Shown here in pieces: positions 12,558 to 64,000 of a stretch of 64,000 bases of DNA. The stretch's first letter is position 1. Every line of letters starts with the position of its first letter. The notes beneath the pieces were generated by a model, which saw nothing but the letters and a program-made list of their open reading frames with translations, made no database searches and had not been told where the DNA came from. A program made the position numbers and the translations under genes. Where the stretch lies: NCBI GenBank assembly GCA_903836515.1, contig CAILQW010000050.1, positions 14,861 to 78,860 on the forward strand. Reading direction: 5' to 3'. Origin of the DNA: Candidatus Omnitrophota bacterium. Lineage in GTDB: Bacteria; Omnitrophota; Gorgyraeia; Zapsychrales; Fredricksoniimonadaceae.

Positions 12558-12922
12558 TCGATATACCGGATTCCTTCTTCGAAAAGGATGCCCATGGGCA
12601 ATTCCTTTGTCCTAAATGCCGCCGTATCATTAACGCGTGTACCTGTCCGTCGATTGACCCTCCCGGGCCGCGACCCATGACCTTTACGCCAAGGCTTCGT
12701 CTGGACAGGTCGGGGCGCAAGGGCAAGGTTGTGACCTTGATCGAGCGTTTACCGCACGACGAGAATTTTATCAAGGCCATGGCCCATGATATCAAGGCCA
12801 GGACCGGCAGCGGCGGGACTTTTTATCTCGCCGGAGATGAGGGCGTGATCGAGATCCAGGGCGATCACCGCAAGAAGATCAGCGATCTTCTGGCCCTAAA
12901 GAAATCCTCTTTATCCGCATGA
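12554..12922 (+). CDS. yciH: Translation initiation factor SUI1/YciH family protein
   Basis: C-terminal SUI1 fold (GRKGKVVTLIERL ... GSGGTFYLAGDEGVIEIQGDHRKKISDLLALKK) closely resembles E. coli YciH. ATGA overlap with the RND permease stop. Confidence 0.75.
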   Translation: MIDIPDSFFEKDAHGQFLCPKCRRIINACTCPSIDPPGPRPMTFTPRLRLDRSGRKGKVVTLIERLPHDENFIKAMAHDIKARTGSGGTFYLAGDEGVIEIQGDHRKKISDLLALKKSSLSA

Positions 12923-13099
12923 CCACCTTCCCGGGCCAAATTGAAACACCATTGTCTTTGGCCCGAACGTTACCGCCGGGCGATCACCCGATAGGATAAG
13001 GCGGGGATGGATGGCACGTGATTTTCAAGGAAATGTGATCTGTGTGCGGTTAATCTTTTTTTTGTTGTTTTAATCCGTTTTTACAGCACAATAGAACAC

Positions 13100-14215: not shown

Positions 14216-14296
14216 TCAAGAATTTGAGTTTGTTTATTTGATCTTTTATGTCATGATATACATTCTTGTCAGTAAAAAATATAGGGAGATTCTTTT

Positions 14297-14701
14297 ATGC
14301 AGGTTGAAGTCTTTGCCATCTGTGACGCTGCGACATCCGACAGCGGCAAGCTTAATATCCTCGGCGCCTTTGACACCATCTGGGTGAGGCAGTTCCCGGC
14401 TGTTTATCCCCACTGTGCGGTTGCGGTCAAGATGCGTTTTGAGGCCATTGAAAAGGGTGATCATGCGATGGTCACACGCCTCATCGATGAGGACGGGAAG
14501 AATGTCCTGCCGCCGGCGACGGGGTCTTTTACAATGAATATGCCTGAGAACCAGCGTTCAGCTTCGACTGATGTGGTCCTGAACATCCAGGGGTTGAACT
14601 TATCCAAACCAGGTGAATATGCCCTCGAACTTGCGGTCGACGGCCGCAGTGAGATATCCCTGCCGCTCTTTATCCGTCAGGCAGCGGCGGTCGCCCCGTG
14701 A
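14297..14701 (+). CDS. Hypothetical protein
   Basis: 134-aa ORF with good RBS context (agggagattcttttATG). No family recognised by eye. Confidence 0.4.
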   Translation: MQVEVFAICDAATSDSGKLNILGAFDTIWVRQFPAVYPHCAVAVKMRFEAIEKGDHAMVTRLIDEDGKNVLPPATGSFTMNMPENQRSASTDVVLNIQGLNLSKPGEYALELAVDGRSEISLPLFIRQAAAVAP

Positions 14702-15492
14702 GCTCATCCGACATGTTTCAGGACGCCCATATCCATATCCAGGACTTGAAGAATGACAGCCAGATAACCCGTTTTCTGGAAGAAGCGCGGGCGCATGAGG
14801 TGGGTTGTTTCTACGGCTGTGCCATCACGCCGGCTGACTGGGACATGGTTGAGTCTCTTTCCCTGCGTTATGCGGGCTTTATTCCATTCTTCGGCATTCA
14901 TCCCTGGTTTGCGGATATAGCTCCATCCGGCTGGGAAGAGCGCCTCCGCGGCCTTCTGGAGAGATACCCCCTGGCCTGTGTCGGGGAAACCGGACTTGAT
15001 AAAACACGCAAGAACATCGACATGGAAGACCAGAAAAATATTCTGGCGTGTCATTTGCGCATGGCCCGGGATTACCATCGGCCTTTTGCCCTTCATTCTG
15101 TCCGTGCGTGGGCAGAGGCGATCGCGCTTATCAAGGAGCATGCACCGGGAGTTCCTTTTATAGCGCATTCTTTTTATGCAGCGCCTCCGATCCTGGGAGA
15201 GGTGCTGGATCTGGGAGGGTATGCGAGTTTCTCGACCAAACAATTGATGCGCCCGGATGAGGCATTGAAGGAGCTTGTCAAGGCCGCGCCCATTGACCGG
15301 ATACTGATTGAAACGGATTTCCCCTACCAGATCAAGTGGACATCGCCGGAAGATTACATAGAAGCCTTAAAGGCCGCCTATGCCATGGCGGCAGATATCA
15401 AGGGGGTCCCCCTGGATGAATTTATCCGCGTGATTCGGCACAATGGCCGGTTTCTTGCCAGTCAGGCGTTGCCGCGTCAAGGAACAACCTGA
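14698..15492 (+). CDS. tatD: TatD-family metal-dependent hydrolase (DNase)
   Basis: DAHIHIQD N-terminal metal-binding motif, GLHPW, internal histidines and ETD(F/S)PY C-terminal motif. Confidence 0.8.
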   Translation: MSSSDMFQDAHIHIQDLKNDSQITRFLEEARAHEVGCFYGCAITPADWDMVESLSLRYAGFIPFFGIHPWFADIAPSGWEERLRGLLERYPLACVGETGLDKTRKNIDMEDQKNILACHLRMARDYHRPFALHSVRAWAEAIALIKEHAPGVPFIAHSFYAAPPILGEVLDLGGYASFSTKQLMRPDEALKELVKAAPIDRILIETDFPYQIKWTSPEDYIEALKAAYAMAADIKGVPLDEFIRVIRHNGRFLASQALPRQGTT

Positions 15493-29627: not shown

Positions 29628-31070
29628 ATGAAGATTGCTATCCTCAACCCCTCATTTGGCAAGAACTTTGTCCGCGTTGCCCGCTGGGCGGCCCGGTCGC
29701 GGGGGCGTGTTCAGCGTCATCCCGATTATTTGCTCATCGCGGCCCAGGTCCTCCTGGATGCCGGCCATGAGGTGATTTTCGTAGAAGCCGCGGCATGCAA
29801 TATGTCACCGGAGGAAAGTTTCAAGGTCATCCGGGCGTTTACGCCGGAACTGCTCGTGATCCATGCCACGACCCCATCGATTTATGCGGACATGGAACAG
29901 GCCCGCACGATCAAGGCGCAGAATGACTGCCGGGTGGTCTTTGTCGGCCAGCATGTGAGTGCAGAACCCCTGAATACGTTTGAGATAGCCCGCGGCGCCG
30001 TGGATTATATCCTGCGCGGCGAATATGATCACTCCTTGCGCGATCTGGCCAATGGTTTGCCCTCTGGGGATATCAAGGGGATGAGCTGGCATAACGGGCA
30101 GACTGTTATTACCAATCCCGACCGTCCTGCCCTGGATGTGAACGAGCTTCCCTTCCCTGCCTGGCATTTGATCAAGCCGGAGTGGTATCCGGATGCGGGT
30201 AAGAAATTCCCATTCTTGACGCTGTTCACCGGGCGCGGGTGCAATAATGCCTGCAGTTTTTGCCGTGATCCTCAGCTCATGTATGGCTATCGTTTGCGTA
30301 ACCGTGATGCCCAACGGGTCGTCGACGAAATGGAATTCGACCTTCGGTTGTTCCCCGGTATCCGTGAGATCATGTTCGAAACAGATACTTTTGCAGCCGA
30401 TCCCAAACATGTTCAGGCGGTTTGCCAGGAGATCATCCGGCGGGGCCTTCACACGAAGATATCCTGGTCCTGCAATATGCGCATTAATACGGACCTTGCC
30501 CTGCTTCCTTTAATGAAGAACGCCGGCTGCCGCATGCTTATGGTCGGGTATGAATTCGGCACGGATGAGACCCTGCGCGCGGTGCGCAAGGGCGATGTGA
30601 ATGTGGCCATGGGCCGGCGATTCAGCCAAAGAGCTCATGAACTGGGGTTTACCCTGCACGGGTGTTTTATGATCGGCGCTCCCGGGGAAACCCATGAAAG
30701 CGCCCGCGCCACCATCGATTATGCCAAGTCCATGACCCTGGATACCATCCAGATCACAGGGATCGCCACATACCCTGGCACGCATCTTTATAGTTGGGCC
30801 AAAGAGAACGGGTATCTGCTGGCCAAGGACTGGACCGACTGGCTGACGGCGGAAGGCGAACAGAAAACCCTGCTGTCGTATCCCCAACTTTCCAACAAAG
30901 AGATCGATACCCTTATTGATACCGGCCTGAAAGAATTCTACCTGCGCCCCGTTCAGATGTGGCGCATGCTGGTCAGCATCCGTTCCGTGGGAGATCTCCT
31001 ACGGAAACTCTACGGCCTGGGGGCATTCATCGATTATTTCTGGAAGAAAATCATTCGGTCACACCCATAA
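29628..31070 (+). CDS. B12-binding-domain radical SAM protein
   Basis: N-terminal cobalamin-binding-like Rossmann region, then radical SAM CxxxCxxC motif (GRGCNNACSFC). 480 aa. Confidence 0.8.
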   Translation: MKIAILNPSFGKNFVRVARWAARSRGRVQRHPDYLLIAAQVLLDAGHEVIFVEAAACNMSPEESFKVIRAFTPELLVIHATTPSIYADMEQARTIKAQNDCRVVFVGQHVSAEPLNTFEIARGAVDYILRGEYDHSLRDLANGLPSGDIKGMSWHNGQTVITNPDRPALDVNELPFPAWHLIKPEWYPDAGKKFPFLTLFTGRGCNNACSFCRDPQLMYGYRLRNRDAQRVVDEMEFDLRLFPGIREIMFETDTFAADPKHVQAVCQEIIRRGLHTKISWSCNMRINTDLALLPLMKNAGCRMLMVGYEFGTDETLRAVRKGDVNVAMGRRFSQRAHELGFTLHGCFMIGAPGETHESARATIDYAKSMTLDTIQITGIATYPGTHLYSWAKENGYLLAKDWTDWLTAEGEQKTLLSYPQLSNKEIDTLIDTGLKEFYLRPVQMWRMLVSIRSVGDLLRKLYGLGAFIDYFWKKIIRSHP

Positions 31071-31679
31071 AAGACGGGACTGTTGTTGTCATCGGGCGGA
31101 TGTCAATGATGACCGGCGTGATGCCCGCGGCGTCCTGCAGGCGCTGGATCATGGCGGGGTCGAATTTATACTGGACAATTTCCCCATTATTATTCTTGAC
31201 GTTTATTCTGTCGCGGGTCAGGTCGATGCCGCCGGTGCCAGATTGAGACGCAGAATCGGGCAGAACAACATCGGGTATCCGGTTAACTGGTGATTTTAAC
31301 GAATTATCCCGAGGGGTGTTATTGTGTTTCGTTAGAAAATAATATAATTTCTCTTCATTCTTTACTGTAAAATCCCGTTTCAGCAGATCCTTTCTAAAAT
31401 ATCCGTTTAGAAATTCCTGGCCGGATGTTAAATCCGTAATATCAAACCCAGGTTTAATAAACGGTTGCAGCAATCAAAAAAATAATTGTTCAGATCCCCA
31501 TGGCTTAACCTTTTATAGAAACTGATGAGCATTTTTCTCAAGTCATCAATAACAAAGAAGGCGAATTCATCTCTGGACATACGACCTGCTGCGATACGGG
31601 CATCTTGAAAGTCGACTAATTTTAGACGGCTGATATATCCATCAGGGATTCTAAATTGTCCAAGTAGATTGATGTTCAT
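31051..31679 (-). pseudogene. Frameshifted small GIDL-module protein (family copy D, paralog of 62921..63598)
   Basis: Two overlapping ORFs in different frames on the same strand (31428..31679 and 31051..31473) reconstruct a ~210-aa protein. It ends in GGIDLTRDRINV...FDPAMIQRLQDAAGITPVIIDIRPM. The locus is AT-rich. Confidence 0.4.
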
Positions 31680-46957: not shown

Positions 46958-49106
46958 TTATGGGTTAACGGGGACCGATGGCGGGACAGCCGTTCCCGGG
47001 CCAAACAACGCATCAATCTTGACCGGACGCGGGCTTCCTACCGGAACTGGAAGAAAGCCTCGCAGGTCGCGTTGAAGGTGCAGGATTTCGGCGGGGTTAA
47101 ATTGAGAGCTGCCGTCAGGGCTCATCCCCATCACGTGAAGATAATGCCCCTGCCCCAGGTCAATACCGCCGTTGGGGGAAGCAGTGTCGATCGAAGTGGA
47201 TTCTTCACTGTTCCGGAAATGCTTCTTTAGAGCGAGCCAATGCCTGTTCAAAATATCGTTGTATATCTTCATCTTTGTTTTTGTGGTTTGATCATTCAAG
47301 TCCGTATGACGCGCGATGATCCTCATGAAAAGAGGAAAGAAAGGAAGATCGAGCCATAAGGAGATGAATGCCCCGCCTGCCGTGGCGGCGCAGATCTTGC
47401 CCACAGATGAATATTTTTTCCACCATGTCTTCATCCTGTCCGTGTTCCAGGGGGGCATATCATCCGTATCAGAACCGGATGTTTGCGCTTGATCCCTGAG
47501 CGTCCGGTAAGGCCGTGGTGGTACGAAACGTTTTGGCCATGGTTGAGCTCTGGATTTTTTTTGAAAGGCGTCCGCACGTGTTTTTTGTAACATATAAACT
47601 TCGGACATAAACATTTCAATTTTTTTGATTTTTTTAATATTATCACCCATAGACTCTTTGTGGGTCCTGAGAGCGTTAAACAGGTTGTTTAGCGCCACCT
47701 GATTGAACGTGTGATAATTGCGATGCAGGGCATCAGCCCCATTTGTGGATTTGAGTTTTTCCAGGAAATAACCGTAAGTATTGAGGCGTTGGTGGGTTTG
47801 TTGAGCCGCATCGTATTCCTGGTCGCTGTCTGTGGACATATCAAATTTTAGCTGGTAGGTAATTGTTTTATAATCTTCATTAAATCTTATGCCGTAGTTG
47901 TTATTGGCGTTATCAGGGTGCAGGGCTTTGTGAAAGGCAAGCCCGCCCGCGAAATATTTGCGTGCAAGAGGTTGTTGGGTCGTGCGGTCAAATTCTTCTT
48001 TCACGTAGTTGTAAACACCTTTCCGGTACGCCTGAAGGTATTGCGCGTATACCTGTTCCCTGGCGTTCTTCTGCGCGATTTCAAAGGCCGACTACCTTAT
48101 TTGTGCCTATATAAATCCGATTGATCAGACTGTTCTTTAAGCTGTTTTTGTACCACCCCGCCAGGATCAGGGAGTAAAAAATTTGCCGTAAGGGGGCAAA
48201 GTTTTTACCTTCGTTGACTTCTTTTTCGAGGATGGGGATGACGATGTCACGCAGGACATCCTTGATGATTATATTACGGGAGGACACAAGGTCCTCCCCT
48301 ACGCTCATGGAATTAACATTTTGTAGTGTAGGGGCGGACCTTGTATCCGCCCGTGCCATGTCCTTCTGTTGGGACATGGCTACGTCCCCGGCAGGAGCCG
48401 AGGATTCCGCCATGTCCTTCTGTTGGGACATGGCTACATAATCGCTTTCCAGCATTACCTTCAAATGGGCTTTTGTCACGAAGGCGTTGCCGTCGTGTTG
48501 ATATACTTCGGCTTCATCGGGGGTGATCCAGACCTTGTTGAAAGTATCCACCGGGATATCGGCATGGCCGAATTTCGCGTATACCTGGTTGTAAATGGTA
48601 TCCCAAAACTTCCGCCCAAGATCATTTTCCGGGTACATCAAGGTTGACATCACCTGCTTAAGGATGTAATCCTGCGCCAGCATGTCGCGCCCGGCATCGG
48701 TATGACTTAACGGATCGGCCATGATCCTGTTTTTTTCGGCGGGCGACAGGTTAACCCACAACTCGTTCTCCGGGACGGCCAGTCCTGCCAGGAAATATTT
48801 TACAAGACGGGTGGTCTCATCGGTCAACGTTTGCTCTTTCAGATCAGCCGTCCCGTTATCCACAATAAAATCGATCAGGAGAGGATCTTCAGGATGGAGG
48901 GACACACCCTTGAGCAGGACCGGCGTAACAGGTTCTGAAAGCCCGATCATCTCCCCCGGCTGGGGCAGATTAAAAACAGACTGGGCGTACCCCTGAGGAG
49001 GGATAATTATGTTAAAACAGAATATTGTTAGAATAATATATGTTTTAAGTCGTTGCATGGGTAGACCAATTGCCGGGAATTTTTGTAAAAAGTATAATAT
49101 ATACAA
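46958..49106 (-). pseudogene. Frameshifted paralog (~716 aa) of the N-terminal region of the giant protein, ending in the GIDL module (family copy E)
   Basis: ORFs 48081..49106 and 46958..48004 (same strand, different frames) are collinear with giant-protein residues ~40-400 (QPGEMIGLSEPV.. vs QPGAMVGLSPAY..; LHPEDPLLIDFIVD vs LHPEDPFRFDFMVH; DMLAQDYILKQV vs DLLAQDYLLKQL; KVWITPDEAEVY vs KVWIIPDRASVY; ARKYFAGG vs PRKYFSGG). The frame switch lies at about 48004-48081. The C-terminus is GGIDLGQG...FNPAEILHLQRDLRGFLPVPV. Confidence 0.55.
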
Positions 49107-49213: not shown

Positions 49214-51619
49214 TTACTTCTTGACTTCTTCCTTGATGATCTGCATGTCTGTGAATGACTTGATCACGAAGAACACCGACACCGCGAAGAACACGATCGC
49301 CAGGCCCATATTGAGCGCGGCGCTCAACTGGAGTGCGATCTCGATGGCCAAGAGGCCGAACAATGTCGTGAACTTGATGATCGGGTTCAGCGCGACAGAT
49401 GAGGTGTCCTTGAAGGGATCGCCCACCGTATCGCCCACCACTGATGCCGCGTGGAGTTCGGTGCCTTTTTCACGCAGATTGACTTCAACGACCTTCTTCG
49501 CATTATCCCAGGACCCGCCGGCATTAGCCATAAAGATAGCCTGGTAAAGGCCGAAGATCGCGATGGAGATCAGGTAGCCGATGAAAAAGTAGGGATTCAG
49601 GCACGCAAAGGACAGCGTGGCAAACAAGACGGCAAGAAATAAATTGATCATGCCCTTTTGCGCGAACATGGTGCAGATCTCGACAACTTTCTTGCTGTCT
49701 TCGGTCGATGCCTTGTCAGAACCTTCGAGTTTGATGTTCTTCTTGATGAACTCGACGGTATGATACGCGCCGGCCACAACCGCCAGGGTTGATGCGCCTG
49801 TAAACCAGTAGATCATGGCCCCGCCCAGGATAAGCCCCAGGAGGAAAGGCGGATATAGGACAGACAAGAACTGGATGTTCGTTGTAAGCCCCACGGTCAG
49901 GATCATGATGATCGAAAAGATCATGGTGGTCGCGCCGACAACAGCTGTCCCGATCAAGACCGGCTTGGAGGTGGCTTTGAATGTGTTACCTGCACCGTCA
50001 TTGGATTCCAGGTAATGCTTGGCTTTTTCAAAGTCAGGCGTAAATCCAAAGTCCTTCTTGATCTCCGCAGGAGAAACTTTCTCAATGAGGGAAAGTTCAT
50101 AGATCGACTGCGCATTATCAGCGACCGGGCCATAGGAATCGACCGCGATGGTGACCGGTCCCATACCCAGGAACCCGAAGGCTACAAGACCGAACGCGAA
50201 GACCGATGGTGCCAGCATGAGGACGTCAAGTCCAAGGGCGCTGATGCCGTAGGCGATCGCCATAAGAGACGCGATGGTGAGCCCCATCCAGTAAGCACTG
50301 TAATTGCCGGTCACAAATCCCGCCAGAATATTCAGGGATGCGCCGCCTTTTTTGGAAGATTCCACGATGTTCTTCACGAACGCAGATTCAGGCGATGTGA
50401 ACAGTTTGACCAGTTCAGGAATAATGGCGCCGGCGATCGTGCCGCAGGTAATGATCGAGGCGAGCTTCCACCACATGGTGCCATCCCCCATCGTCGGGAT
50501 CAAAAGGAAGGATGCCGCGAAGGTGAAAGCGATAGAGACCAGCGACGTGATCCAGACCAGCGACGTCAGGGGGTCTTCGAAATTCATTTCCTTGGCTCCC
50601 GCATAACGGGCCTTGGAAATAACACCATTAAGCCAGTAGGAGAAGGCACTGGCAATGATCATTAAAAGACGCATGACAAAGATCCAGACCAGGAGCTGAA
50701 CCTGCACCAGCGGGTCCTTGACGGCCAGGAGGATAAAGGAAATGAGCGCCACACCTGTAACGCCGTAAGTTTCAAAACCATCGGCTGTCGGGCCGACGGA
50801 ATCGCCCGCGTTGTCGCCGGTACAATCCGCGATGACACCGGGATTACGTGCGTCATCTTCTTTAATATTGAACACGATCTTCATCAGGTCGGAACCGATG
50901 TCGGCGATCTTGGTGAAGATCCCGCCCGCGATACGCAATACAGAAGCGCCCAAAGATTCGCCGATGGCGAAACCGATAAAACAGGGACCCGCATAGGAAG
51001 GATCGATGAACAGGAGGATGCAAAGCATGACCAACAGCTCGGTCGAGATGAGGAGCATGCCGATGGACATCCCCGCCTGGATCGGAATGGAATAAACGGG
51101 ATACGGAGAACCCGCCAGCGAGGCAAAGGCGGAGCGGGAATTGGCCATGGTGTTGATGCGCATGCCGAACCAGGCCACCCCGTAACTGCCGGCAATACCG
51201 ATCAGCGAGCAAATGAGGATCATCACGACCTTGGCGAATTCCATGTGGCGCAGCCAGCCGAAGTACGCGATCATGACAATGCCCACCAGCAGCTCGAGGA
51301 TCAGGAGGAATTTACCTTGCGTGATCAGGTAGGTTTTGCACGTTTCATAAATTAGTTCGGAGATGTCTTTCATCGCCTTGTGCACGGGCATTTTCATGAT
51401 GCTGACAAACTGGACGAGCCCGAAAAGAAAACCGAACACGCAGATCGTCATCCCATAGAGCAAGAGGGTTTTGCCGTCAATACCTAGAAAAGACACGGAT
51501 GATAGATTGGGGACGATCAAATCCGCTTCACCGGCCCATGCGGGTGTCAGGCTTGCGGTCAAAAGGACCAGCGGTGACAAAAGCATGGGTTTAAGTAGAT
51601 TCTTAAAAAAACGCCTCAT
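49214..51619 (-). CDS. hppA: Membrane-bound H+(/Na+)-translocating pyrophosphatase
   Basis: 801 aa, about 16 TM. Conserved GGIFTKIADIGSDL, DNAGDSVGP and DCTGDNAGD-type motifs. N-terminal signal-like extension. Confidence 0.9.
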   Translation of the reverse strand: MRRFFKNLLKPMLLSPLVLLTASLTPAWAGEADLIVPNLSSVSFLGIDGKTLLLYGMTICVFGFLFGLVQFVSIMKMPVHKAMKDISELIYETCKTYLITQGKFLLILELLVGIVMIAYFGWLRHMEFAKVVMILICSLIGIAGSYGVAWFGMRINTMANSRSAFASLAGSPYPVYSIPIQAGMSIGMLLISTELLVMLCILLFIDPSYAGPCFIGFAIGESLGASVLRIAGGIFTKIADIGSDLMKIVFNIKEDDARNPGVIADCTGDNAGDSVGPTADGFETYGVTGVALISFILLAVKDPLVQVQLLVWIFVMRLLMIIASAFSYWLNGVISKARYAGAKEMNFEDPLTSLVWITSLVSIAFTFAASFLLIPTMGDGTMWWKLASIITCGTIAGAIIPELVKLFTSPESAFVKNIVESSKKGGASLNILAGFVTGNYSAYWMGLTIASLMAIAYGISALGLDVLMLAPSVFAFGLVAFGFLGMGPVTIAVDSYGPVADNAQSIYELSLIEKVSPAEIKKDFGFTPDFEKAKHYLESNDGAGNTFKATSKPVLIGTAVVGATTMIFSIIMILTVGLTTNIQFLSVLYPPFLLGLILGGAMIYWFTGASTLAVVAGAYHTVEFIKKNIKLEGSDKASTEDSKKVVEICTMFAQKGMINLFLAVLFATLSFACLNPYFFIGYLISIAIFGLYQAIFMANAGGSWDNAKKVVEVNLREKGTELHAASVVGDTVGDPFKDTSSVALNPIIKFTTLFGLLAIEIALQLSAALNMGLAIVFFAVSVFFVIKSFTDMQIIKEEVKK

Positions 51620-53360: not shown

Positions 53361-54733
53361 ACCACCTCTCCTGGATCAACGGTGTTTATATCATCAGCTG
53401 TATCCTGTTCGCGTTCGGGCTGAAATTTCTTGGATCCCCTGAAACCGCCCGCCGCGGCAACTGGCTTTCCGCCATGGGTATGCTCTTGGCTGTGCTGGCG
53501 ACCCTGACGTCGCGTGAGATCATTTCTTTCCAGTGGATCCTGATCGGGGGTATTATCGGCGCATCGTTGGGGACCCTGGTGGCCTTGCGCGCGGGCATGA
53601 CCCAGATGCCCGAGATGGTGGCCTTGCTCCATGGATTCGGGGCCTTGGCCAGCGTTTTTGTGGACTGGAGCGCATACCACAACCACACGCCGGATAACGC
53701 GATTGTCGTCACCGCGATCTATCTGTCGATCCTCATCGGCGGGGTGACGTTCACCGGAAGTCTTGTGGCCTGGGGTAAGCTGAGCGAACGGCTTCCCGGG
53801 AAACCACTGCTCTTCCCCGGCCAGCAAATGATCAGCATCCTGACCGTTGCAGCCATAGGTCTGCTGGCGATCCCGTTCTTCCTGAATCCTTCTGTTTATC
53901 CGGTATTTTTATGGATCCTGGGCCTGTCCCTCGTCCTTGGCGTCCTCTTGGTGATCCCTATCGGCGGGGCTGATATGCCGGTGGTGATCTCGGTCCTTAA
54001 CAGTTATTCCGGGCTTGTGGCGTGCACCACAGGGTTTGTGATCAACAATATCCTTCTGATTGTCGTCGGGGCTCTTGTCGGGGCCAACGGGATCATCTTA
54101 AGCTACATCATGTGCAAGGCCATGAACCGTTCGCTCAACAATGTACTTTTTGGCGCCTTCACCGCACGCGCAAAGAAAGCCGCAGGAACGGCCAAGGGTG
54201 AAGTCAAACCCATCAGCCCCCAGGATGCATTCCTCATCCTGGAGTCCGCACGTTCGGTCGTTATTGCCCCCGGCTACGGTCTTGCGGTCGCCCAGGCCCA
54301 GCACGCGGTTCGCGAATTGGGAGAACTTCTGGAAAAGAACGGGGCTGATGTGAAATACGCCATCCATCCGGTGGCCGGCCGCATGCCCGGGCACATGAAT
54401 GTCCTTTTGGCCGAAGCCAATGTCCCCTACGACCAGCTGGTGGAAATGGAACACATCAATCCGCTGATGGACAGCGTTGATGTGGCCATTGTGATCGGGG
54501 CCAACGATACCGTCAACCCCGCCGCGATCCACGACAAGACCTCCCCCATTTACGGCATGCCCATCATTGAAACATTCCGGGCCAGGACTGTGTTTGTGAT
54601 CAAGCGTTCCATGGCGTCGGGTTTTGCGGGGATCGAGAATGAACTTTTCTATTATGACAATACGCGCATGATCTTCGGCGATGCCAAGGATGTGGTGCAG
54701 AAGCTTGTGGCGGAATTCAAGGCCGGGAACTGA
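53357..54733 (+). CDS. pntB: NAD(P) transhydrogenase beta subunit
   Basis: 458 aa. N-terminal membrane domain plus C-terminal NADP(H)-binding dIII (VIAPGYGLAVAQAQH ... GANDTVNP). Confidence 0.9.
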   Translation: MNHLSWINGVYIISCILFAFGLKFLGSPETARRGNWLSAMGMLLAVLATLTSREIISFQWILIGGIIGASLGTLVALRAGMTQMPEMVALLHGFGALASVFVDWSAYHNHTPDNAIVVTAIYLSILIGGVTFTGSLVAWGKLSERLPGKPLLFPGQQMISILTVAAIGLLAIPFFLNPSVYPVFLWILGLSLVLGVLLVIPIGGADMPVVISVLNSYSGLVACTTGFVINNILLIVVGALVGANGIILSYIMCKAMNRSLNNVLFGAFTARAKKAAGTAKGEVKPISPQDAFLILESARSVVIAPGYGLAVAQAQHAVRELGELLEKNGADVKYAIHPVAGRMPGHMNVLLAEANVPYDQLVEMEHINPLMDSVDVAIVIGANDTVNPAAIHDKTSPIYGMPIIETFRARTVFVIKRSMASGFAGIENELFYYDNTRMIFGDAKDVVQKLVAEFKAGN

Positions 54734-57700
54734 CCGGCAGGACCGCATCTGCGATCAGGGCGGGAAGATCGGTCACAGGCTGTATATCCATGATCACAGG
54801 GATCAGCCCCGGGATCGGCCCCTCCGGCAGCGGACGGCGGTATTCCGGGAACCGGATGCAGATCTCATCCCCGCCGGTGTGCAGTTCGGTATTACGCGGA
54901 TTCAGATCGATACCACCTTTATCAAGCGGCTGTATTGAATTCCCATCCAGAGCCGGCTTGGCAGAATAATCCTTCTTTTCCCCTGGGATCAAACCAAGTT
55001 CTTGGCCCATTTCAATGATGTGCTCTGCCATATAGATTTTTCGATGATAATGCCGCTGTGTTGTTGAATGTTCTGAAGAAATCCAATAGCTCAGATCATC
55101 ATAGCCATCTTCATCCATTCCAACAAAACCCTGACTCACATAATGCTTGCCTAAGGCATACGCCAGATGTGTTATGCCGCCTTCAACCGTACCAACAATA
55201 TCAGCGGCTTCCATTAAATAAAGGATGCCCCGTTCATGCGGTTGCGGCACAGGCGCAAGCATGATGGAATTCAAATATTGCTCAGGAATAAAATTCATGA
55301 TAGATTTTTCATCTTCAGAACGGCTGAATCCCCACCCTGCTAAATGATTCATGTTCGGCATAAGAATGACAAAGAATCCCGATTCAATCAACTGTTGAAT
55401 TTGCCGGGCCCCGTAGCGAAACCCGAATTCCGATAATCCCTTGGCTGTCAACTCCCCGCCGAACGGATTCAAAAACACAACCGGTCTTTTTTCGATATTT
55501 TTCTCAGCCAATTCGGCCAAGAGTCTTATTTTCTGATCGGCCTCAGAACCTGAAACTGTCGTCATATAATGATCGGTTACTCCCTGGTTGTTACCTGACC
55601 TGTGTGGAAGGCCGAGTTGCTTCAAAAGATTAAGGGTGGGGGCATATTGATTGTCATCGTTTATCGGGCTCAACACGTCATTTCCCACACGGATGATATC
55701 ATAACCTTTGCGTCCGTAGGCGTAGGGGGAATGAATATAAATAGCAGGTTGCTGTCTTTTAATGACATCCTGGATCGCATCTTCCGCCCTTTGTGAAAGA
55801 ATTTTTCTGTCAGCGTCATAACGGTGAATGATCATGTCAAACTTTACAGCGTCAAACATAAAAGGAGGTGTCACTTTTATCCGCGGATGATTATACAACT
55901 GCGTTTGTTTCGTATAAACATAGATCTCAAGCTCCGGGTTGTAATCCAGCAGTGCTTGAACGAGTGATCCATTGCGTATGATTTCATCTCCCAGGCCTTC
56001 ATCCAGATTATGGACCAGCAGGACATTTTTCTTGCCGGTCTTAAGAATTTCCTCAACTTTCTTATGAATTGCGGTCTTCTCGTTTTTCCCAAGGTCCGGT
56101 TTTTTCTCATTAATCAAAGGAATGAGTTGTTCAAGCCCTTGTCGAAAATCATTCAAAGATCCGGCCTCATGTATGTTATTTTTAATCAGTAAATTCCAAA
56201 AAGTAGCAACACGTCCGTGAACACGTGAACTCATTTCAGCAAAAATCCTCAACTGCTCAAGTGATAGTGATGCCCCATGAAACCCAATCCTCCCTTCTAG
56301 TTGGTAATAGATAAAGTTGTGCGGTGAACTATCCAGATTGAGCAGGATCGCCTTGATCGAAGGCCAATATTCAAAGAAACTTTCGCCGTAATGTTCCTTT
56401 AAGTCCATAAAACTCCCGTTAATTAAATAACCCATGCTTGTCGCATCCGGTTCCTTAAACATGAGCTTAAAGATGTCTCCAATTTCATCAAAAAACCTGT
56501 GACCAAAAATTTTCTTAACTTCAGGCAAAAACTTAAAATATTGTCCGGGACGCCGACCCGCCGATAAGATCGCGAATTCTTTTAAATCATCCCAGTATTG
56601 CGGGATTTTATCGTCAAACACATCAACGGCGATTTCCCATATTCCCCAAACGTCACGACCCAGATCATTCTCGGCCGCCATGGTCCAATACATATTTTCC
56701 AATTCATCCAGAATACGCCGCATATCCTCACGGGAATGGATTAAATACGGTTTTAACGTCTTCAGTGAAGATAAGGCCAACTCAGCACCGACATTGGGTT
56801 GACGAGCATCGTTTTCTATCGAGCTTTGAATCAGCTTGAGTCCTAATTCAGGAAAATACTCCAGGTATTCCTCATTGGAATAACCATCAAACGGCATCCC
56901 GCCATTTGTCGTAAAAAACGGTTCTCTCCATTGCCGCACGCCAGCAACAGTGTCAACAACCTCATAGCCATAACGTTTAATAATATCTTCTATCAGCTGT
57001 CTTTTATCATCTGGCAGTTTTTTATATAACGATTGGGCATAAAATTCATTCTTAAAAGAGCTCTCAGACCTGTTATTAACACCTCGTTTAGCCCGTAAAG
57101 CCAATATTATTTCCTCTGCCGGCATTGATACCGGAACTCCACCCAAACCATCAATAAAACGGTTCCCGTTCATCGCGCCATCTTTCTTCTCTCCATCTTT
57201 CCTGGACGATCTTGATCCGGCGGTTTCATTCTTCGCGGCATGGAATAGATAGAGATTCGGATAAAATGCCGCATCATTTGCGATGCGAAGGATACCCTCT
57301 ACTGGATCTCCAACCAGATTGTTTTTCTTCAAAAATTCTTTGATCCGCATTTCATAACTTGCTTCCGGGATATCATCAATAAGACCAGAACTCGGACCAA
57401 TAATTATCCGCCAGAGAGCCAGAGAATTTTTATTCTGCGCCAACTTTTCTTTAAGTTCATTAAACAACATAATGAATTCACCAGGTGTTATATAATAAGC
57501 CCGGCTGTTATAGGAGAATCCCCTACGACGAAGATACCACGCAAGGAATTCTTCATTATAAACGGCCGGTGCGTTAAACAGATACACATCGGCATCGCCC
57601 ATCTCGCGAGACTGCTCAACCTCACCGCCTATGGGAATCTGTCCGGTGTCCCGCGCATAGCGCACATTCCACGCGGTCAACAGATTATGTGCCGGATTGA

Positions 57701-60700
57701 TATCATAGTATGTGACCCTGCGTGCCCCTGACAACAATGCCAGCAGGACATCGATCCCGGTTCCGGGCCCCTGGACACGAACAGTCTTGTTTTTAAATAT
57801 CCCGGCATTCTCAATAACAGCTTTCTGAAAATCTGCACTGCGATTATGGCGCGCCGAGAATATCTTCTCATGTGGAAGAGCATCAAGCATAACTTCTTGA
57901 AGGAATCCATCCGTCTTCTGTTCTGTGTAAGGCTTTACTGTCAGAAGAGAAAGCTTGTATCCTTGATCCCTTCCTTCCACGTTCCGGGACGCATTAATAT
58001 CTTGTGTATTTTCCGGAGATAAGATCAGTCCCGACCAGTCTTTAAAAGTTGCCAGTTTTGTCTTATTGATGACATCTTGCGCGTTTTTCAATATCCAATC
58101 CATTTTTCCAGGGTAAGACCATAAGAAAGATATATCAAAAAGAATATTTTTATCTTGGATCGGATCCTCCACAACCAGCGCCATGGGCAAATTGTGGAGA
58201 GTGTCAAATTTCCCACCATAATTCCCTTCTTGGGAATTAAAAGTAATCAGAAAGGCACGTTGGCTGGCCACAGGTCTTTCTGTATCACTAAATGTTCCGA
58301 AAAACGCTTGGCCCGCCTCATTGAGACGGATGGGGATATACCCCCACGCATTGCCATCACTGTCCGTATGAACGTGCGTATACTCCTGCGCCAGCTTCTC
58401 ATAATTCATACCGGGCGTATCCGGGAACTTTGCCATGGAGCTCAAAATCTCCCGGAACATCGGCAGGAACGCATGCTCACCGATGGAATGAATATACTTT
58501 TCCAAGAAATCCCCGGAACGGTCTCTTGAAGGTGGCAATATCATTTCTCCTGATCCCTGATTACCCGTAATAATGGATGCCTTGTCTTCAGCCGCTGTTC
58601 CCGTTGCCTCCATCCTGCTCTGGCCTGGCTGGTTATTAATCCTCTCATCGGCATCATGATTCTGTGTGAACGCCGGATTGTTGCGCGCAAAAGGCTCAAA
58701 AAAGTCCGGATTCTTTGATGCCGCAACCAGAAAATGTCCGGATGACAGGATGTGATGCGCGAGCGCATAATAAAGGGCGGACTGATAGTCCGGCGATGTG
58801 CTTGTCCCGGCTTCCGCCATCACCGCCAACACCGGCTGATCCGATGTCATCAAGTCCAGGAATTCCGTCAGCTGTTTGATGTTGTTTCCAAAGAGGCTCA
58901 GCTCCGGTCGCCGGTACCGGTATTCAAGCGTATCATCGTAATATGCAAATTTTTGAAACACCGGCATTGTCATCTTCTGATTTGGCGCATACCCTGTCGC
59001 CTGAGCGCACAGCAGATTTAAGACAAGTGTCTTCAAGTCTTCGCGTGTTAACGACCCTTCAGGTTCACCGTAAAGCTGAACATGGCGATGGGCATCTATC
59101 AAAAAATCAACCGGCTTGTATTCCTTCCCGGATTTAAGAAAATTCCGCGCTCCCTTAATTTCAACCTCCGGATTTTCATGAAACTGAACCAGTGTCCATT
59201 GCCGTTTCTGAATAAAACGAGCCAACTTTATCAAGGCCCCCATTTTATTTAACTCAAACTTGATATCAATATGCGATTCCTCATCAATCAGATATCCCCG
59301 TACCGCAGCCCTCACGGCCTCCTGTTGTGCCAGGAATCTCAGATAATCCATGCCATTTTTAAAATCTCCTAACCAATGTCGCAGTATCTTTTCAAAATAA
59401 TTGCCGAATTGATTCAAATAAACCGAATCAAAACTCTTCAACGCATCAACCAGATCCTTAACGGCATCTCCCGGCATTAATAGCGTTTTGATCCGATAGG
59501 CGTACATCACACTGGGCATTCCGGGGATATTCATCCCCCACACCCCTGGTTGTCTATCAAGAAAAGCAACAACCTTGTCGATCTGCGCGCGGACAATGTC
59601 CCAGCGTGTTTCATCATAAAGCGACAACGGAGGGACCTTTTGAAAAAGAATTTCATTAATGCGTCTCTGTAAGTCCGCGATCAGAGGGATCACTGTCGGT
59701 AATGGCATGCCCTCTTGCTGTCTGATTTTGTAAATTTCATTGAGCTCTTTATCAATTCCAACTTTCTCCTGCGTAAGATCGCCGCCCAAACTCAAGACCA
59801 TCTCGACCATTTTTACATACGCATCAACAAGAATGAAATAGGAGTCTCTCTTAATATTTCCATCTTCCTTGGTATAAATCATGAATTTTAAAAGTTCATG
59901 ATTAAACCGTGTCCAATCTATGTCACGATCCACACTGGACGTCACTGACAATAAGCCCTGTATCCGCTCCAGGGCTGTTTCTATTTTCTCAATATTGGGG
60001 GCATATTCCGGCGCTCCTAAAAGACCAAACATCTTTTGGCGTTCGAAGATCTCTTGGGGGTCACGGGAAGTTCCCTGTAGAAGGAATTTCTGAATCTCTT
60101 GGCCATAAAACATACCCAAAATATTCATGTCTTCTTTACTCATATCAAAAGGCGATCCACCATTCGATAATTCCATATCGTTGGAAAACATCTTGAATAC
60201 AGGATCATAGGTCAACTCCTTCTCTTTCAACGGGCCGCCAACCGAGGGATGAGAACCTTCTCGTTTTGCCACCGGGACAAGCCAGCCTCTTTCTGGAAAG
60301 AATCCGTAGAAATTCCCGGTTCTTTTCTTGAGAATTTCCCGTTGCTTTTCAGAATAGGTTTTAAGGGCAATCATTGGCAAAGGACGGATATTCTCCACAG
60401 AACGCTCAACGCCATCATGATAGTTTTGCGCGGTTTGCACGACGTCTTCCGGAAGACCAAGATCTCGTGCCACCTCAAGTGCATGCGAATCATCCGGCCC
60501 CGGGTGCATCTGATGGGTCTGAACGATCTGGCCATCATGCTGGTCAATCTTAAAGTGATAGACCGCTGTAGTTTTAGGATCATTAAGCCTGGAATCGACA
60601 AAAAGGCTATTATGCGTCGCCACCCTCACCCTAGCTCCGCGTTTAAGCAATTCATTTGTAAGCAGTTGTAATTTTAAGGTATGTTCCTCGGGCGACAACC

Positions 60701-62918
60701 TTGAGAATGGTTCATCAAGACAGACCAGCGTTTCATGCGTCACGCCGGATTCTTCTGGAAAAAGTTTGGCAATTTCAATACGTGAACTTTCCCGATCATC
60801 TACGAAGGCTAATTTCTTATAGATTCGGAAGTTTCCATCTGCAAAGGGACCATATCCAAATGTCTGGACCATCTTTTGGATCAGATAGTCGCGTTTGAGC
60901 CCGGTAAAGGTCTTGCCGGACATATTTGCTCCCCGGTAGATCACCAGCGGCTTATCCTCGGGTGAATCATTAAGGACCTGACCTTCTTTTGGTGCGTACG
61001 GCATCCAGGCGTCCTTGTATCCAATATGCTCATCGAGATTGAATGTTGCCGGGTGAAATCCCTCCCGGCGCGCCCACCATGTAAAATGCAGAAAAACATC
61101 AATCCGTTCCACAGCCGCAGAGATCGCCTCGAGTTCTTTACGGCGTCCCGCCAGAGCCTTGTAATCCTTTTCTCGGGCATAGGATAAAAGTGTTGCAATA
61201 TCAGATATATGTGATCCCGTGAGCAAGGCGTCGGCTTCATCCGCCAATTCGGTTAATAAAGGATCCTCCAGTTTTTTGACATCCTGAAGGAAAGCCGCAA
61301 CATCCTCAGCAACCTTAGTGAAGCGCGAAAAAACAGGATGATTGACGTCAATATCCGTGGCATTCTGAACACCGATCACAATGAGCGGCTCGGTGGCCCC
61401 AGGCAAACGAAGAAACAAATTTATGCACCAACCGATCTTGCCTTGGAGTCCCTGACTTTTTTCCACCAACAGGGCCTGTTTATCATCATTCAGCTTTAAA
61501 ATACATTTCACCGCAGCCTGCCGCTTCAAGATATCCGCCTTGTTAATTAATGGCGCGTCAATCAGATCGCCGATCAGCCTGTGATGTGTCCAAAAGTTTT
61601 CTTCCTCAGGTTTTTGTAAACTGTCACGGATCTGCGCTGTGGCGGTAGGAAACAGCGCCCCAGACTTTTGCGAATCCGTTGGTTGTTTAGAATTTTCTTG
61701 TGAGGCATCATTGGATCGTTGCGACGCAATATCGGCGCGTGTCCTAACAATAACAGAATCGGTTGCTTTTTTACGCATCTTGTCTGGCAGTTGCAACTCA
61801 TTGCTGATTTGTTCATACTTCTCCACCACGCCGCCGGAAAAATATTTGCGCGGGATCATGGTCCTGGAGCCCTCGTCATAATCCTCTTTAATGAAATTAT
61901 AAACACCTTGTTGGAACGCCTTAAGATACTGCTGATAAATCTTCTGGTTGATCTGTTTATCCTGGGTATCTACACCTGCGGTCCTGTTGTGATCGGTGTA
62001 AATATCCTGCAGAACACTGCCCGCCACATGGCGCTTGTACCAGGTTGCGAGGATCACGGCGTTTGAGATCTGGCGCAGATGCGCGAACGACTTGCCGGTA
62101 TTGACCTCCCGCTCGATCTCGGGGATGATGATCTCCCGGATAATTTCTTTGGCGATATCGCTCAGCGGCGTCAGATCCTCAGGGCGTGCGTCCCCCAGCC
62201 CGTGCCGGGTGTGGCTCTGATTGGCCTCCAGGGCCAGATAATCGTTTTCCAGCATAACCTTATGGTGACATCCGGTCACAAAGACCGATGTTCCGCTGAC
62301 ATAGACCGACGCACGGTCCGGAATAATCCACACCTTGTGAAAGGTCTCCATCGGGATCTCGTTTGTCCCGTATTTCTCCCGGGTTTTATCCTTTACCCGC
62401 TTCCAGAACGTACGCCCCAATTCTTTCTCGGGATACATCAGGCTGGCGGTCAACTGCTTGAGGAGATAATCCTGCGCCAAAAGGTCCCGCCCTATCTCGG
62501 TTGCACCGAATCCCTGCGGAATAATGCGGTCTTTCTCATACGGAGAAAGGTTGACCCACATCTCGTCTTCAGGCACTGTCATGGCCGCAAAGAAATATTT
62601 GATCAGGCGGCTGGATTCATCCCGCAGACTATCCCCTTTAAGATTGTCATCCCCGGGATGCACCATGAAATCAAACCGGAACGGATCCTCAGGATGGAGT
62701 TTCATGCCGATCATCAGGACAGGATCATAGGCGGGGCTTAAACCAACCATGGCGCCGGGCTGCGGCAGGCCGGGGATCGTTTCAACCGCGGGCACAATCT
62801 GCTGTGCCTGCGCCTGGGACAATCCGGATGAAAAAACAGACTGACAGATAAAGGAGATCAAGACCGTCAGGATCAGGGTTTTCTCAAGAAATTTGTTTTT
62901 TAAATGAAAATTGTGCAT
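54717..62918 (-). CDS. Giant (2733 aa) multidomain protein: signal-like N-terminus + conserved N-domain + MutS-type ABC ATPase + class-I MTase-like + GT9 heptosyltransferase-like + C-terminal GIDL module (family copy B)
   Basis: Continuous ORF. MutS domain V match at about aa 600-840 (RGANMSGKTF Walker A; LVCLDEPFSRLSPEEHT Walker B region; ATHN). MTase motif I VRVQGPGTGIDVLLAL plus YYDINP plus DVYLFNAPAV at about aa 1710-1790. GT9-like LLVHNLDEGLGDEII ... VVFLNPFGGE ... VEGGITHLAYALGKHYVS at about aa 2295-2600. C-terminus is GGIDLNPRNTELH...IPGLIPVIMDIQPV. GC is visibly lower than in neighbouring genes. Confidence 0.7.
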   Translation of the reverse strand: MHNFHLKNKFLEKTLILTVLISFICQSVFSSGLSQAQAQQIVPAVETIPGLPQPGAMVGLSPAYDPVLMIGMKLHPEDPFRFDFMVHPGDDNLKGDSLRDESSRLIKYFFAAMTVPEDEMWVNLSPYEKDRIIPQGFGATEIGRDLLAQDYLLKQLTASLMYPEKELGRTFWKRVKDKTREKYGTNEIPMETFHKVWIIPDRASVYVSGTSVFVTGCHHKVMLENDYLALEANQSHTRHGLGDARPEDLTPLSDIAKEIIREIIIPEIEREVNTGKSFAHLRQISNAVILATWYKRHVAGSVLQDIYTDHNRTAGVDTQDKQINQKIYQQYLKAFQQGVYNFIKEDYDEGSRTMIPRKYFSGGVVEKYEQISNELQLPDKMRKKATDSVIVRTRADIASQRSNDASQENSKQPTDSQKSGALFPTATAQIRDSLQKPEEENFWTHHRLIGDLIDAPLINKADILKRQAAVKCILKLNDDKQALLVEKSQGLQGKIGWCINLFLRLPGATEPLIVIGVQNATDIDVNHPVFSRFTKVAEDVAAFLQDVKKLEDPLLTELADEADALLTGSHISDIATLLSYAREKDYKALAGRRKELEAISAAVERIDVFLHFTWWARREGFHPATFNLDEHIGYKDAWMPYAPKEGQVLNDSPEDKPLVIYRGANMSGKTFTGLKRDYLIQKMVQTFGYGPFADGNFRIYKKLAFVDDRESSRIEIAKLFPEESGVTHETLVCLDEPFSRLSPEEHTLKLQLLTNELLKRGARVRVATHNSLFVDSRLNDPKTTAVYHFKIDQHDGQIVQTHQMHPGPDDSHALEVARDLGLPEDVVQTAQNYHDGVERSVENIRPLPMIALKTYSEKQREILKKRTGNFYGFFPERGWLVPVAKREGSHPSVGGPLKEKELTYDPVFKMFSNDMELSNGGSPFDMSKEDMNILGMFYGQEIQKFLLQGTSRDPQEIFERQKMFGLLGAPEYAPNIEKIETALERIQGLLSVTSSVDRDIDWTRFNHELLKFMIYTKEDGNIKRDSYFILVDAYVKMVEMVLSLGGDLTQEKVGIDKELNEIYKIRQQEGMPLPTVIPLIADLQRRINEILFQKVPPLSLYDETRWDIVRAQIDKVVAFLDRQPGVWGMNIPGMPSVMYAYRIKTLLMPGDAVKDLVDALKSFDSVYLNQFGNYFEKILRHWLGDFKNGMDYLRFLAQQEAVRAAVRGYLIDEESHIDIKFELNKMGALIKLARFIQKRQWTLVQFHENPEVEIKGARNFLKSGKEYKPVDFLIDAHRHVQLYGEPEGSLTREDLKTLVLNLLCAQATGYAPNQKMTMPVFQKFAYYDDTLEYRYRRPELSLFGNNIKQLTEFLDLMTSDQPVLAVMAEAGTSTSPDYQSALYYALAHHILSSGHFLVAASKNPDFFEPFARNNPAFTQNHDADERINNQPGQSRMEATGTAAEDKASIITGNQGSGEMILPPSRDRSGDFLEKYIHSIGEHAFLPMFREILSSMAKFPDTPGMNYEKLAQEYTHVHTDSDGNAWGYIPIRLNEAGQAFFGTFSDTERPVASQRAFLITFNSQEGNYGGKFDTLHNLPMALVVEDPIQDKNILFDISFLWSYPGKMDWILKNAQDVINKTKLATFKDWSGLILSPENTQDINASRNVEGRDQGYKLSLLTVKPYTEQKTDGFLQEVMLDALPHEKIFSARHNRSADFQKAVIENAGIFKNKTVRVQGPGTGIDVLLALLSGARRVTYYDINPAHNLLTAWNVRYARDTGQIPIGGEVEQSREMGDADVYLFNAPAVYNEEFLAWYLRRRGFSYNSRAYYITPGEFIMLFNELKEKLAQNKNSLALWRIIIGPSSGLIDDIPEASYEMRIKEFLKKNNLVGDPVEGILRIANDAAFYPNLYLFHAAKNETAGSRSSRKDGEKKDGAMNGNRFIDGLGGVPVSMPAEEIILALRAKRGVNNRSESSFKNEFYAQSLYKKLPDDKRQLIEDIIKRYGYEVVDTVAGVRQWREPFFTTNGGMPFDGYSNEEYLEYFPELGLKLIQSSIENDARQPNVGAELALSSLKTLKPYLIHSREDMRRILDELENMYWTMAAENDLGRDVWGIWEIAVDVFDDKIPQYWDDLKEFAILSAGRRPGQYFKFLPEVKKIFGHRFFDEIGDIFKLMFKEPDATSMGYLINGSFMDLKEHYGESFFEYWPSIKAILLNLDSSPHNFIYYQLEGRIGFHGASLSLEQLRIFAEMSSRVHGRVATFWNLLIKNNIHEAGSLNDFRQGLEQLIPLINEKKPDLGKNEKTAIHKKVEEILKTGKKNVLLVHNLDEGLGDEIIRNGSLVQALLDYNPELEIYVYTKQTQLYNHPRIKVTPPFMFDAVKFDMIIHRYDADRKILSQRAEDAIQDVIKRQQPAIYIHSPYAYGRKGYDIIRVGNDVLSPINDDNQYAPTLNLLKQLGLPHRSGNNQGVTDHYMTTVSGSEADQKIRLLAELAEKNIEKRPVVFLNPFGGELTAKGLSEFGFRYGARQIQQLIESGFFVILMPNMNHLAGWGFSRSEDEKSIMNFIPEQYLNSIMLAPVPQPHERGILYLMEAADIVGTVEGGITHLAYALGKHYVSQGFVGMDEDGYDDLSYWISSEHSTTQRHYHRKIYMAEHIIEMGQELGLIPGEKKDYSAKPALDGNSIQPLDKGGIDLNPRNTELHTGGDEICIRFPEYRRPLPEGPIPGLIPVIMDIQPVTDLPALIADAVLPVSSRP

Positions 62919-62920
62919 CG

Positions 62921-63598
62921 CTAACCGCCTTTTAAGGCAACAGGCTGGATACCCAGGAAGCTCGACAGGTTATCCATGGGCTGAATATTGATGATCACAG
63001 GCTCAAGCCCTGGCGCGGACTGATAACGCTCAAGAACAGCCGGATCCATTCTGAACACCAGACCAGGATTGTCGGATATTGTCTCCAGGCCTAACCGTTC
63101 GGGGGTAAGGTCAATACCGCCGGTATTATCCATTGTCACGGGAGTCCCTTGGAAAGCCACGACATTAAGGGGGAAATATTGGAAGAATGCTGCATTCTTC
63201 CTCGCCAAGGACTGGAACTCAGGCGAAAGCTTATAAAATGACCCCGGAAAAACATCTTCCCCATGATTCCCAGAGCTTTCGCTGTCAGTTACTTTCGAAG
63301 GAATGTCGTTTGTCCCCGCCCATCCTAATTTCAACGGGATTAACATTGCCCGCCCCTGGCTATCAACCTCTAGTTCCAGGTCGAATTCTGACGGGATAGG
63401 CATATCCTTTAATTGTGCATATAAGACACGACGCCCCTCCGGCGTCATGTTGTCAAGACGCCCCTTGAGAGGATCTGAAGAAAAGAAGAATTTGAACAAA
63501 GGGTCCAGCGCAGTGCCAGGCTTAATGCCCCTGATATCACTTTTATTGACAGATACTCCTATAGGATGCTGATGCGCCTCTTTCAGTATCATGTCCAT
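62921..63598 (-). CDS. 225-aa GIDL-module protein immediately upstream of, and abutting, the giant gene (family copy C)
   Basis: Stop codon TAG at 62921..62923 is 2 nt from the giant gene ATG (62916..62918). C-terminal 67 aa GGIDLTPERLGLET...FRMDPAVLERYQSAPGLEPVIINIQPM share the module. Confidence 0.55.
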   Translation of the reverse strand: MDMILKEAHQHPIGVSVNKSDIRGIKPGTALDPLFKFFFSSDPLKGRLDNMTPEGRRVLYAQLKDMPIPSEFDLELEVDSQGRAMLIPLKLGWAGTNDIPSKVTDSESSGNHGEDVFPGSFYKLSPEFQSLARKNAAFFQYFPLNVVAFQGTPVTMDNTGGIDLTPERLGLETISDNPGLVFRMDPAVLERYQSAPGLEPVIINIQPMDNLSSFLGIQPVALKGG

Positions 63599-63757
63599 TA
63601 AGTCATCACTTAAACCCTTCGTGGAATGTAACGGAATGAATCTGGCGGTTTTGAAATACTCAAGAAATAATTTAAATCCTGATGAATCGAGTCTGTCATA
63701 AAATTTGTGTAAATGGTCAACGGCGGTACACTATTACGGTCAACGAAAGGACCAGCC

Positions 63758-64000
63758 ATGGCCATACGCAAAGAGATTATAGAAGAATTGATGGCGGAGT
63801 ACAAGAAGCCGGATGATTTGATCGGTGAAGGCGGATTGATCCGGCAATTGAGCAAGGCTCTTTTGGAACAAGCCCTGAAGGGCGAAATGACCCATCACCT
63901 GGGTTATGAAAAGAATCATAGCCGGCCGGAAGGCGCCGAGAACGCCCGTAACGGCCAGACGAAGAAAAAAATCATTACCCGGGACGGCCCGATTGATATT
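63758..64000 (+). mobile_element. IS256-family transposase gene, 5' part (runs off window end)
   Basis: Translation MAIRKEIIEELMAEYKKPDDLIGEGGLIRQLSKALLEQALKGEMTHHLGYEKNHSRPEGAENARNGQTKKKI matches the conserved N-terminal region of IS256/mutator-family transposases (..LLGxxGLLKQLTKxLLExALEAEMTEHLGYEKHD..NxRNGxxxKTL..). Not in the ORF track because no stop lies within the window. Confidence 0.7.

Follow-up and report, generated by a model that had tools for sequence, protein, structure and literature searches.

Probable disruption of a giant-protein operon by a recently active IS256-family element in an Omnitrophota genome

We consider it very probable that an intact, recently active IS256-family insertion sequence (IS) has split a gene, here called X, directly upstream of a giant-protein gene in the window, the 64,000-nucleotide stretch of Candidatus Omnitrophota DNA that was analysed, and that the low GC content of the giant gene and its relatives marks a native, variable gene family and not an IS-borne island. 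The IS would have transposed into the coding sequence of X, the first gene of a two-gene operon in which the giant gene is the second. The AT-richness of the giant gene and its paralogs would be a property of a phylum-native, variable and weakly codon-adapted family, several members of which appear to be decaying in this genome.

The insertion sequence and the gene that it interrupts

The last 312 bp of the window (63689..64000, plus strand) are the left part of a 1,317-bp IS256-family element whose remainder lies beyond the window end. They are exactly identical to the left end of the complete IS in four contigs that cross it (L002, L006, L008 and L096), and comparison of the flanks in these four contigs fixed both IS ends. 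Three of the contigs (L002, L006 and L008) were found through protein look-ups and L096 through a later metagenome scan. The complete IS occupies positions 1282..2598 of L002. Its left terminal inverted repeat (IRL, GAGTCTGTCATAAAATTTGTGTAAATGG, 63689..63716, plus strand) pairs with the right repeat (IRR, GAGTCCATCATTATTTTTGTGTAAACGG) as 28-bp imperfect inverted repeats that agree at 22/28 positions. The 8 bp preceding the IRL (GATGAATC, 63681..63688, plus strand) are the left copy of a target-site duplication, which is repeated after the IRR in L002, L008 and L095 and stands as a direct repeat on both sides of the IS in L002.

The first 81 codons of the transposase gene fill 63758..64000 on the plus strand, with AAAGGA 7 nt upstream of the ATG, and match Pfam Transposase_mut (E=2.5e-9, 37 bits against a cutoff of 21). 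The full transposase is a single ORF of 404 aa at element positions 70-1284, called as 419 aa by gene callers that use an upstream ATG. At full length it matches PF00872 Transposase_mut at E=2.2e-122 over profile positions 12-377 of 379, and the NCBIfam equivalog NF033543 (transpos_IS256) with 428 bits against a cutoff of 150 over positions 1-337 of 338; its homologs align from residues 1-3. The full-length HMM match implies that the catalytic DDE residues should be present. Every IS256-family feature open to testing in silico (transposase, compact size, inverted repeats, 8-bp duplication) is found in the element.

These results bear out much of an earlier note on this DNA. The IS256-family transposase that it read from 63758 has exactly the peptide given and the PF00872 and NF033543 matches, the IS end that it expected within 63660..63720 lies at 63689, and the distance of about 160 bp from the transposase ATG to the start of a 225-aa gene (ATG 63598) is 160 bp. 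The extension beyond position 64000 that it proposed yielded the 1,317-bp IS with its boundaries, inverted repeats and duplication. A degraded transposase with a distant IS end, which the note had named as the contrary outcome, was not seen, the transposase being full length at 404 aa and the IS end lying 91 bp from the ATG of the 225-aa ORF.

The nearest transposases in 185,579 reference genomes (one per GTDB species; best 80 loci) are 50-62% identical, and their hosts include Acidobacteriota, Elusimicrobia, Latescibacterota, Treponema, Rickettsia endosymbionts and others. Metagenomes contain a graded series at 97, 91, 85 and down to 65% amino acid identity, mostly on contigs of 1.3-2.2 kb, which are the element assembled alone; for relatives with 97-72% amino acid identity, short and unassigned metagenome contigs are the only known source. 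The stand-alone contigs of these relatives measure 1,316-1,319 bp, and two relatives, one at 95.6% and one at 72.5% nucleotide identity, share the IS termini (GAGTC...GACTC is kept in the latter, L091). The IS is a new element within the well-known IS256 family. A literature search found IS256 and Omnitrophica never linked, and this would be the first IS256-family element defined for an Omnitrophota host, including its ends, repeats and target duplication.

The sequence beside the IS is the 3' part of X, a remnant of 255 codons plus stop (62921..63688, minus strand) that contains the 225-aa ORF (62921..63598) and carries the GGIDL C-terminal domain described below. When the IS and one copy of the duplication are excised from L002 or L008, the two sides join into one unbroken ORF of ~840 aa, gene X. 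The N-terminal part of X contains LNLTQGCTNQCVMC and a CxxxCxxC motif and has a weak match to Radical_SAM (E=0.012). The insertion point is spanned by P0002, an uninterrupted 664-aa protein that aligns to X at E=1e-59 in one block (...QEIFPDPDSS|GFKLFLEYFKTA... at the junction). This alignment runs ~110 residues beyond the insertion point and covers the first ~80 residues of the 225-aa ORF. P0002 is the only distant full-length homolog of X among 5.8 billion proteins, and a protein search found no uninterrupted X allele on record. Chance was considered as the source of the ORF continuity, 30 stop-free codons in a matching frame not being improbable, and was rejected because P0002 aligns through the junction. 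The continuous ORF and the alignment across the junction thus identify the 225-aa ORF as the 3' remnant of an IS-split gene. The earlier placement of the IS in or next to the promoter of the 225-aa gene does not hold, as the element lies in the coding sequence of the ~840-aa X.

Inserted antisense to X, the IS would leave two pieces, an N-terminal fragment with 13 IS-encoded residues at its end and a 3' remnant of 255 codons that lacks a promoter. The first piece is recorded as P0001, with the 13-residue IS-encoded tail ...SSSPSLFLCKRHS at its end, and direct reading of the sequence ahead of ATG 63598 showed no convincing ribosome-binding site. The insertion would presumably inactivate X, and the proper annotation of the 225-aa ORF is as the 3' fragment of a ~840-aa gene disrupted by an IS. 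An IS-free allele is expected to carry the empty-site junction ...CCGGATTCATCAGGATTTAAATT... in X.

The giant gene and its family

The giant gene (54717..62918, minus strand; 2,733 aa) lies 2 nt downstream of the X stop codon, a spacer with which the two genes are probably co-transcribed, and its end is overlapped by pntB. The close relative L104 has an ortholog at the same position. The giant protein contains a signal peptide, a conserved N-domain, MutS_V-like ATPase blocks and a GGIDL C-terminus. A search with it returned 1,976 hits at E<=1e-5, nearly all to the ~350-aa N-terminal domain at 45-61% identity, in proteins of 1,500-4,700 aa with very diverse enzyme domains. Every match with an organism name is from Candidatus Omnitrophica/Omnitrophota, and the cluster of the host PntB is likewise named Omnitrophota.

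The family that these proteins form is very large and Omnitrophota-specific. Its frame consists of a signal peptide and a conserved N-domain of ~330-400 aa (motifs WVNLSPYEKDRI and RKYFSGG) at one end and a C-terminal domain of ~60 aa (GGIDL...F.PA......G..PVI..I.P) at the other, with highly variable cargo between them (MutS-like ATPases, HAD hydrolase, glycolytic enzymes, kinases). Some members, such as X and small ORFs, carry the C-terminal domain alone. Family members were found in L006/L008 (the gene Y, below), in L097-L100 and at 11361-17149 of L104. Neither the GGIDL C-terminal domain nor the conserved N-domain has a family in Pfam or NCBIfam, and a literature search for the GGIDL motif returned nothing relevant; the C-terminal domain may serve as a tag for sorting or export.

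Two further family genes in the window are, or appear to be, broken. The first (46958..49106, minus strand) is divided into ORFs 48081-49106 and 46958-48004 by a 1-nt frameshift near 48081, which frame analysis places at a short T run in the middle of the conserved N-domain. A truncated 325-aa (ATG-start) product is called in at least nine contigs from independent assemblies, and this recurrence shows that the population does carry the frameshift and that it is no assembly error. The second, a small GGIDL gene (31051..31679, minus strand), is apparently frameshifted, in that its overlapping ORFs, one of 83 aa and one of 140 aa with GGIDL, lie in different frames.

The 51 other genes of the window provide a background of GC 0.541 (sd 0.026) and GC3 0.631 (sd 0.052). 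The giant gene has GC 0.465 and GC3 0.496 (z=-2.9 and z=-2.6), a GC3 lower than that of all 51 background genes. The other family ORFs have GC 0.493 and GC3 0.531 (X remnant ORF, 62921..63598), 0.479 and 0.524 (46958..48004), 0.483 and 0.582 (48081..49106), and 0.456 and 0.511 (31051..31473). The computation of GC and codon positions called for in the earlier note thus gave a significant deviation of the family from the rest (Mann-Whitney, p=1.8e-6 for GC and p=8.5e-5 for GC3). The contrast that the note had sampled by hand stands in direction and shrinks in size: the family is significantly AT-richer, the shift is ~8 points and not 10-15, and pntB has GC 0.567, not ~0.60. Within the giant gene GC3 is host-like in the N-domain (0.625) and falls to 0.485 in the central block and 0.451 in the C-terminal third. 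The dinucleotide-signature distance at 56-64 kb is 58-63, the high end of the window range, against 51-58 for the housekeeping region at 48-56 kb; this measure did not separate the two regions and does not argue against a foreign origin.

Lower GC3 in family genes than in their neighbours recurs in other Omnitrophota contigs (0.455 vs 0.588 in L097; 0.378 vs 0.448 in L099), where these genes again have housekeeping genes around them. L100 shows the AT-richness only in part and the low-GC genome L098 not at all, so that the effect depends on the genome. As the deviation is found both in the L104 ortholog and in other Omnitrophota genomes, low GC is a trait of the family; the low GC3 may well result from weak codon adaptation or relaxed selection. 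Two other compositional features were observed in the window. GC skew drops clearly below zero (-0.06 to -0.21) across the giant gene at 54000-63000, with a cumulative peak near 53-54 kb, a change that is most simply a coding-strand effect of a long minus-strand gene and not a replication landmark. Three small plus-strand genes outside the family (161, 182 and 177 aa; 5194-6861) are slightly richer in AT than the average of the window, with GC 0.48-0.50 and near-normal GC3.

Synteny was compared with one close relative, the 399-kb scaffold L104, whose PntB and H+-PPase are 94% and 95% identical to those of the window and which shares the gene order PilZ, NhaB, ExbD, ExbB, H+-PPase, PntAA, PntAB, PntB. 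After PntB follows a 1,238-aa ortholog of the giant protein (11361-15077), which overlaps the pntB end as in the window and has GC 0.467 and GC3 0.490 against values near 0.55 and 0.69 in its neighbours; no IS is present at this locus in L104. By blastp the ortholog is 78% identical to residues 1-416 and 75.5% identical to residues 1902-2733 of the giant protein. The central block between them (residues 417-1901; 57216..61670, minus strand; 1,485 aa, in-frame, 4.46 kb) has no counterpart in the L104 ortholog. Two nt upstream of the ortholog, L104 has a 689-aa family gene with the N-domain, a HAD hydrolase domain and a GGIDL C-terminus, with which X shares only the last ~69 residues at 46% identity. 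The segment 46854..49213 (2.36 kb), which holds the extra family gene, is missing in L104 between exbB and the H+-PPase gene. We also observed that the H+-pyrophosphatase, intact at 801 aa in the window (49214-51619), is called as two pieces of 318 + 497 aa in L101 (441-2845), from the independent assembly ERZ27245625, a difference that may reflect strain variation or faulty assembly.

The earlier note had proposed that the IS sits in the promoter of an independent 225-aa gene, at the edge of a horizontally acquired island that contains the giant gene. The IS does adjoin the locus, the composition of the giant gene deviates from that of the host, and the content of family genes varies between close relatives. 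Against this stand the ORF that is unbroken across the insertion, with homolog support, and the 8-bp duplication that the IS carries inside the gene, from which it follows that the IS arrived after the locus. The locus comparison that the note had suggested shows the syntenic site of L104 occupied by an AT-rich ortholog beside pntB and an upstream family gene, without an IS, and all named homologs come from Omnitrophota and not from unrelated taxa. The family genes are scattered among housekeeping genes at 31, 47-49 and 55-63.7 kb, and the locus is not bounded by mobility genes, repeats or a tRNA: the sole mobility gene is the IS within X, pntB forms the opposite border, and tRNA and Rfam scans of the window gave no hits. 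The IS itself has a host-like composition (GC 0.503; transposase GC3 0.642 vs the background of 0.631). An acquired island is therefore extremely improbable, and the AT-rich giant-gene locus should not be labelled a foreign island. The note's wording that the family genes are accessory or foreign survives in its first half, in that they are gained, lost, remodelled and broken; the ortholog in L104 and the Omnitrophota-only homologs speak against the second. Lateral exchange at the level of cassettes is compatible with native ancestry of the locus, and we hold it to be possible, if tentative. The locus would be ancestral, and parts of it would have been acquired after the split from L104 by recombination among Omnitrophota family genes at their conserved N- and C-terminal modules. 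Candidates are the central block, the family gene at 46.9-49.1 kb and the cargo of X, which is radical-SAM-like here and a HAD hydrolase in L104. Such exchange would fit the in-frame presence or absence of the central block between gene ends that are 75-78% identical, the short stretch common to the two upstream genes, the 2.36-kb segment missing in the relative, and the thousands of family members that combine the same N-domain with very different middle enzyme domains. Deletion in the relative accounts for the same pattern, however; the GC of the central block matches that of the vertically shared C-terminal part (GC3 0.485 vs 0.451), and the search for a donor sequence came up empty, the closest full-length match to the giant protein being only 28% identical. 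In the reading that we prefer, of a native and variable family, this large-protein family varies by cassette gain and loss, frameshifts and IS hits while its genomic position is inherited.

Copies of the insertion sequence and their flanks

Searching for exact matches to the 225-aa product brought up 15 contigs of independent metagenome assemblies, and all of these have essentially the same sequence as the window. Most of them, from at least eight samples, end 145-231 nt upstream of the ORF, that is, 54-140 nt inside the IS, as expected of a repeat in short-read assembly; the contig break at the window end is likewise due to a repeat. A second insertion site was found through L006, L008 and a metagenome scan with the inverted-repeat pattern. 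This copy splits the family gene Y, with a target duplication (ATTTTGGC) that stands to the left of the IS in L008, L093 and L096 and to its right in L006 and L094. Rejoined, the Y flanks give a 941-codon ORF with a signal peptide, the N-domain shared with the giant protein and a GGIDL C-terminus. L096 adds a third right flank, Z, which adjoins a DUF2283 gene; a tRNA-like stretch at the L096 start was not confirmed by ARAGORN and Rfam. Two of the three known IS sites (2/3) are thus in family genes. All IS copies are 100% identical, and therefore transposition was recent.

Matching flanks across the IS occur in one of the four crossing contigs (1/4): the parental arrangement X|IS|X, with its duplication, is found only in L002. 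The remaining three have mismatched joins, X-C|IS|Y-C in L006, Y-N|IS|X-N in L008 and Y-N|IS|Z in L096. We regard these hybrid junctions as path choices of the assembler through a 1.3-kb exact repeat, which short-read de Bruijn assembly cannot resolve and at which most contigs simply stop. They could instead be real inversions between inverted IS copies that segregate in the population: L006 and L008 represent exactly the two reciprocal junctions expected from a single inversion between the X and Y copies, and assemblies of two different samples contain the L006-type junction. The mismatched L096 would demand yet another event, though, and the parental Y|IS|Y arrangement is in no contig, so that the choice of path looks arbitrary; we consider segregating inversions unlikely. 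A wider proposal, that the IS inserts preferentially in GGIDL-family genes and that inversions and insertions switch or dismantle large-protein operons in co-existing strains, is in our view very unlikely. The large signal-peptide proteins of such operons may be secreted or surface-exposed, and if the proposal were true it would supply an IS-driven mechanism of variation for a giant-protein family that is a signature of the phylum.

Expression of the giant gene and comparison with known systems

In L104 the ortholog and its upstream family gene are likewise 2 nt apart, and from this conserved spacing we infer that the giant gene depends on the X promoter. It would be cut off from this promoter by the 1.3-kb IS and a premature stop. 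The transposase gene is directed away from the giant gene, and a promoter and terminator scan of 62800-64000 detected no outward sigma-70-like promoter at the left IS end, counts being at or below those of shuffled sequences; the scan used the sigma-70 consensus, which may not apply to Omnitrophota. Expression of the giant gene is thus probably reduced through polarity and not driven by the IS. Of the two effects on the giant operon that the earlier note had allowed for, disruption is borne out by the split in X, and an IS that drives the operon finds no outward promoter. That the giant ORF has stayed intact agrees with a recent insertion.

In staphylococci, an IS256-type insertion just upstream of a gene can abolish or create its transcription, through polarity or hybrid promoters. 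The insertion in X differs in being intragenic, with no outward promoter-like site found at the left repeat, and disruption plus polarity is the expected effect of such an intragenic insertion. In its build the element agrees with the IS256 family, whose members have a single transposase ORF of ~400 aa in a ~1.3-kb element with imperfect inverted repeats of ~28 bp and 8-bp duplications. The known IS256 members are distant from it, the nearest reference transposases, at 50-62% identity, belonging to other phyla.

Giant ORFs are a known hallmark of Omnitrophota (PMC10066038; bioRxiv 10.1101/2023.11.21.568195). The published giant-protein loci encode large, poorly annotated, signal-peptide proteins typical of the phylum, as does the locus described here. 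The published giant ORFs exceed 20 kb, whereas the protein encoded in the window is far smaller, at 2,733 aa. Transposases of the IS110, IS5 and IS1634 families are among the genes that flank Omnitrophota giant-protein loci (bioRxiv 10.64898/2026.06.07.730766); in the window, by contrast, the element belongs to the IS256 family and lies within the upstream gene of the operon.
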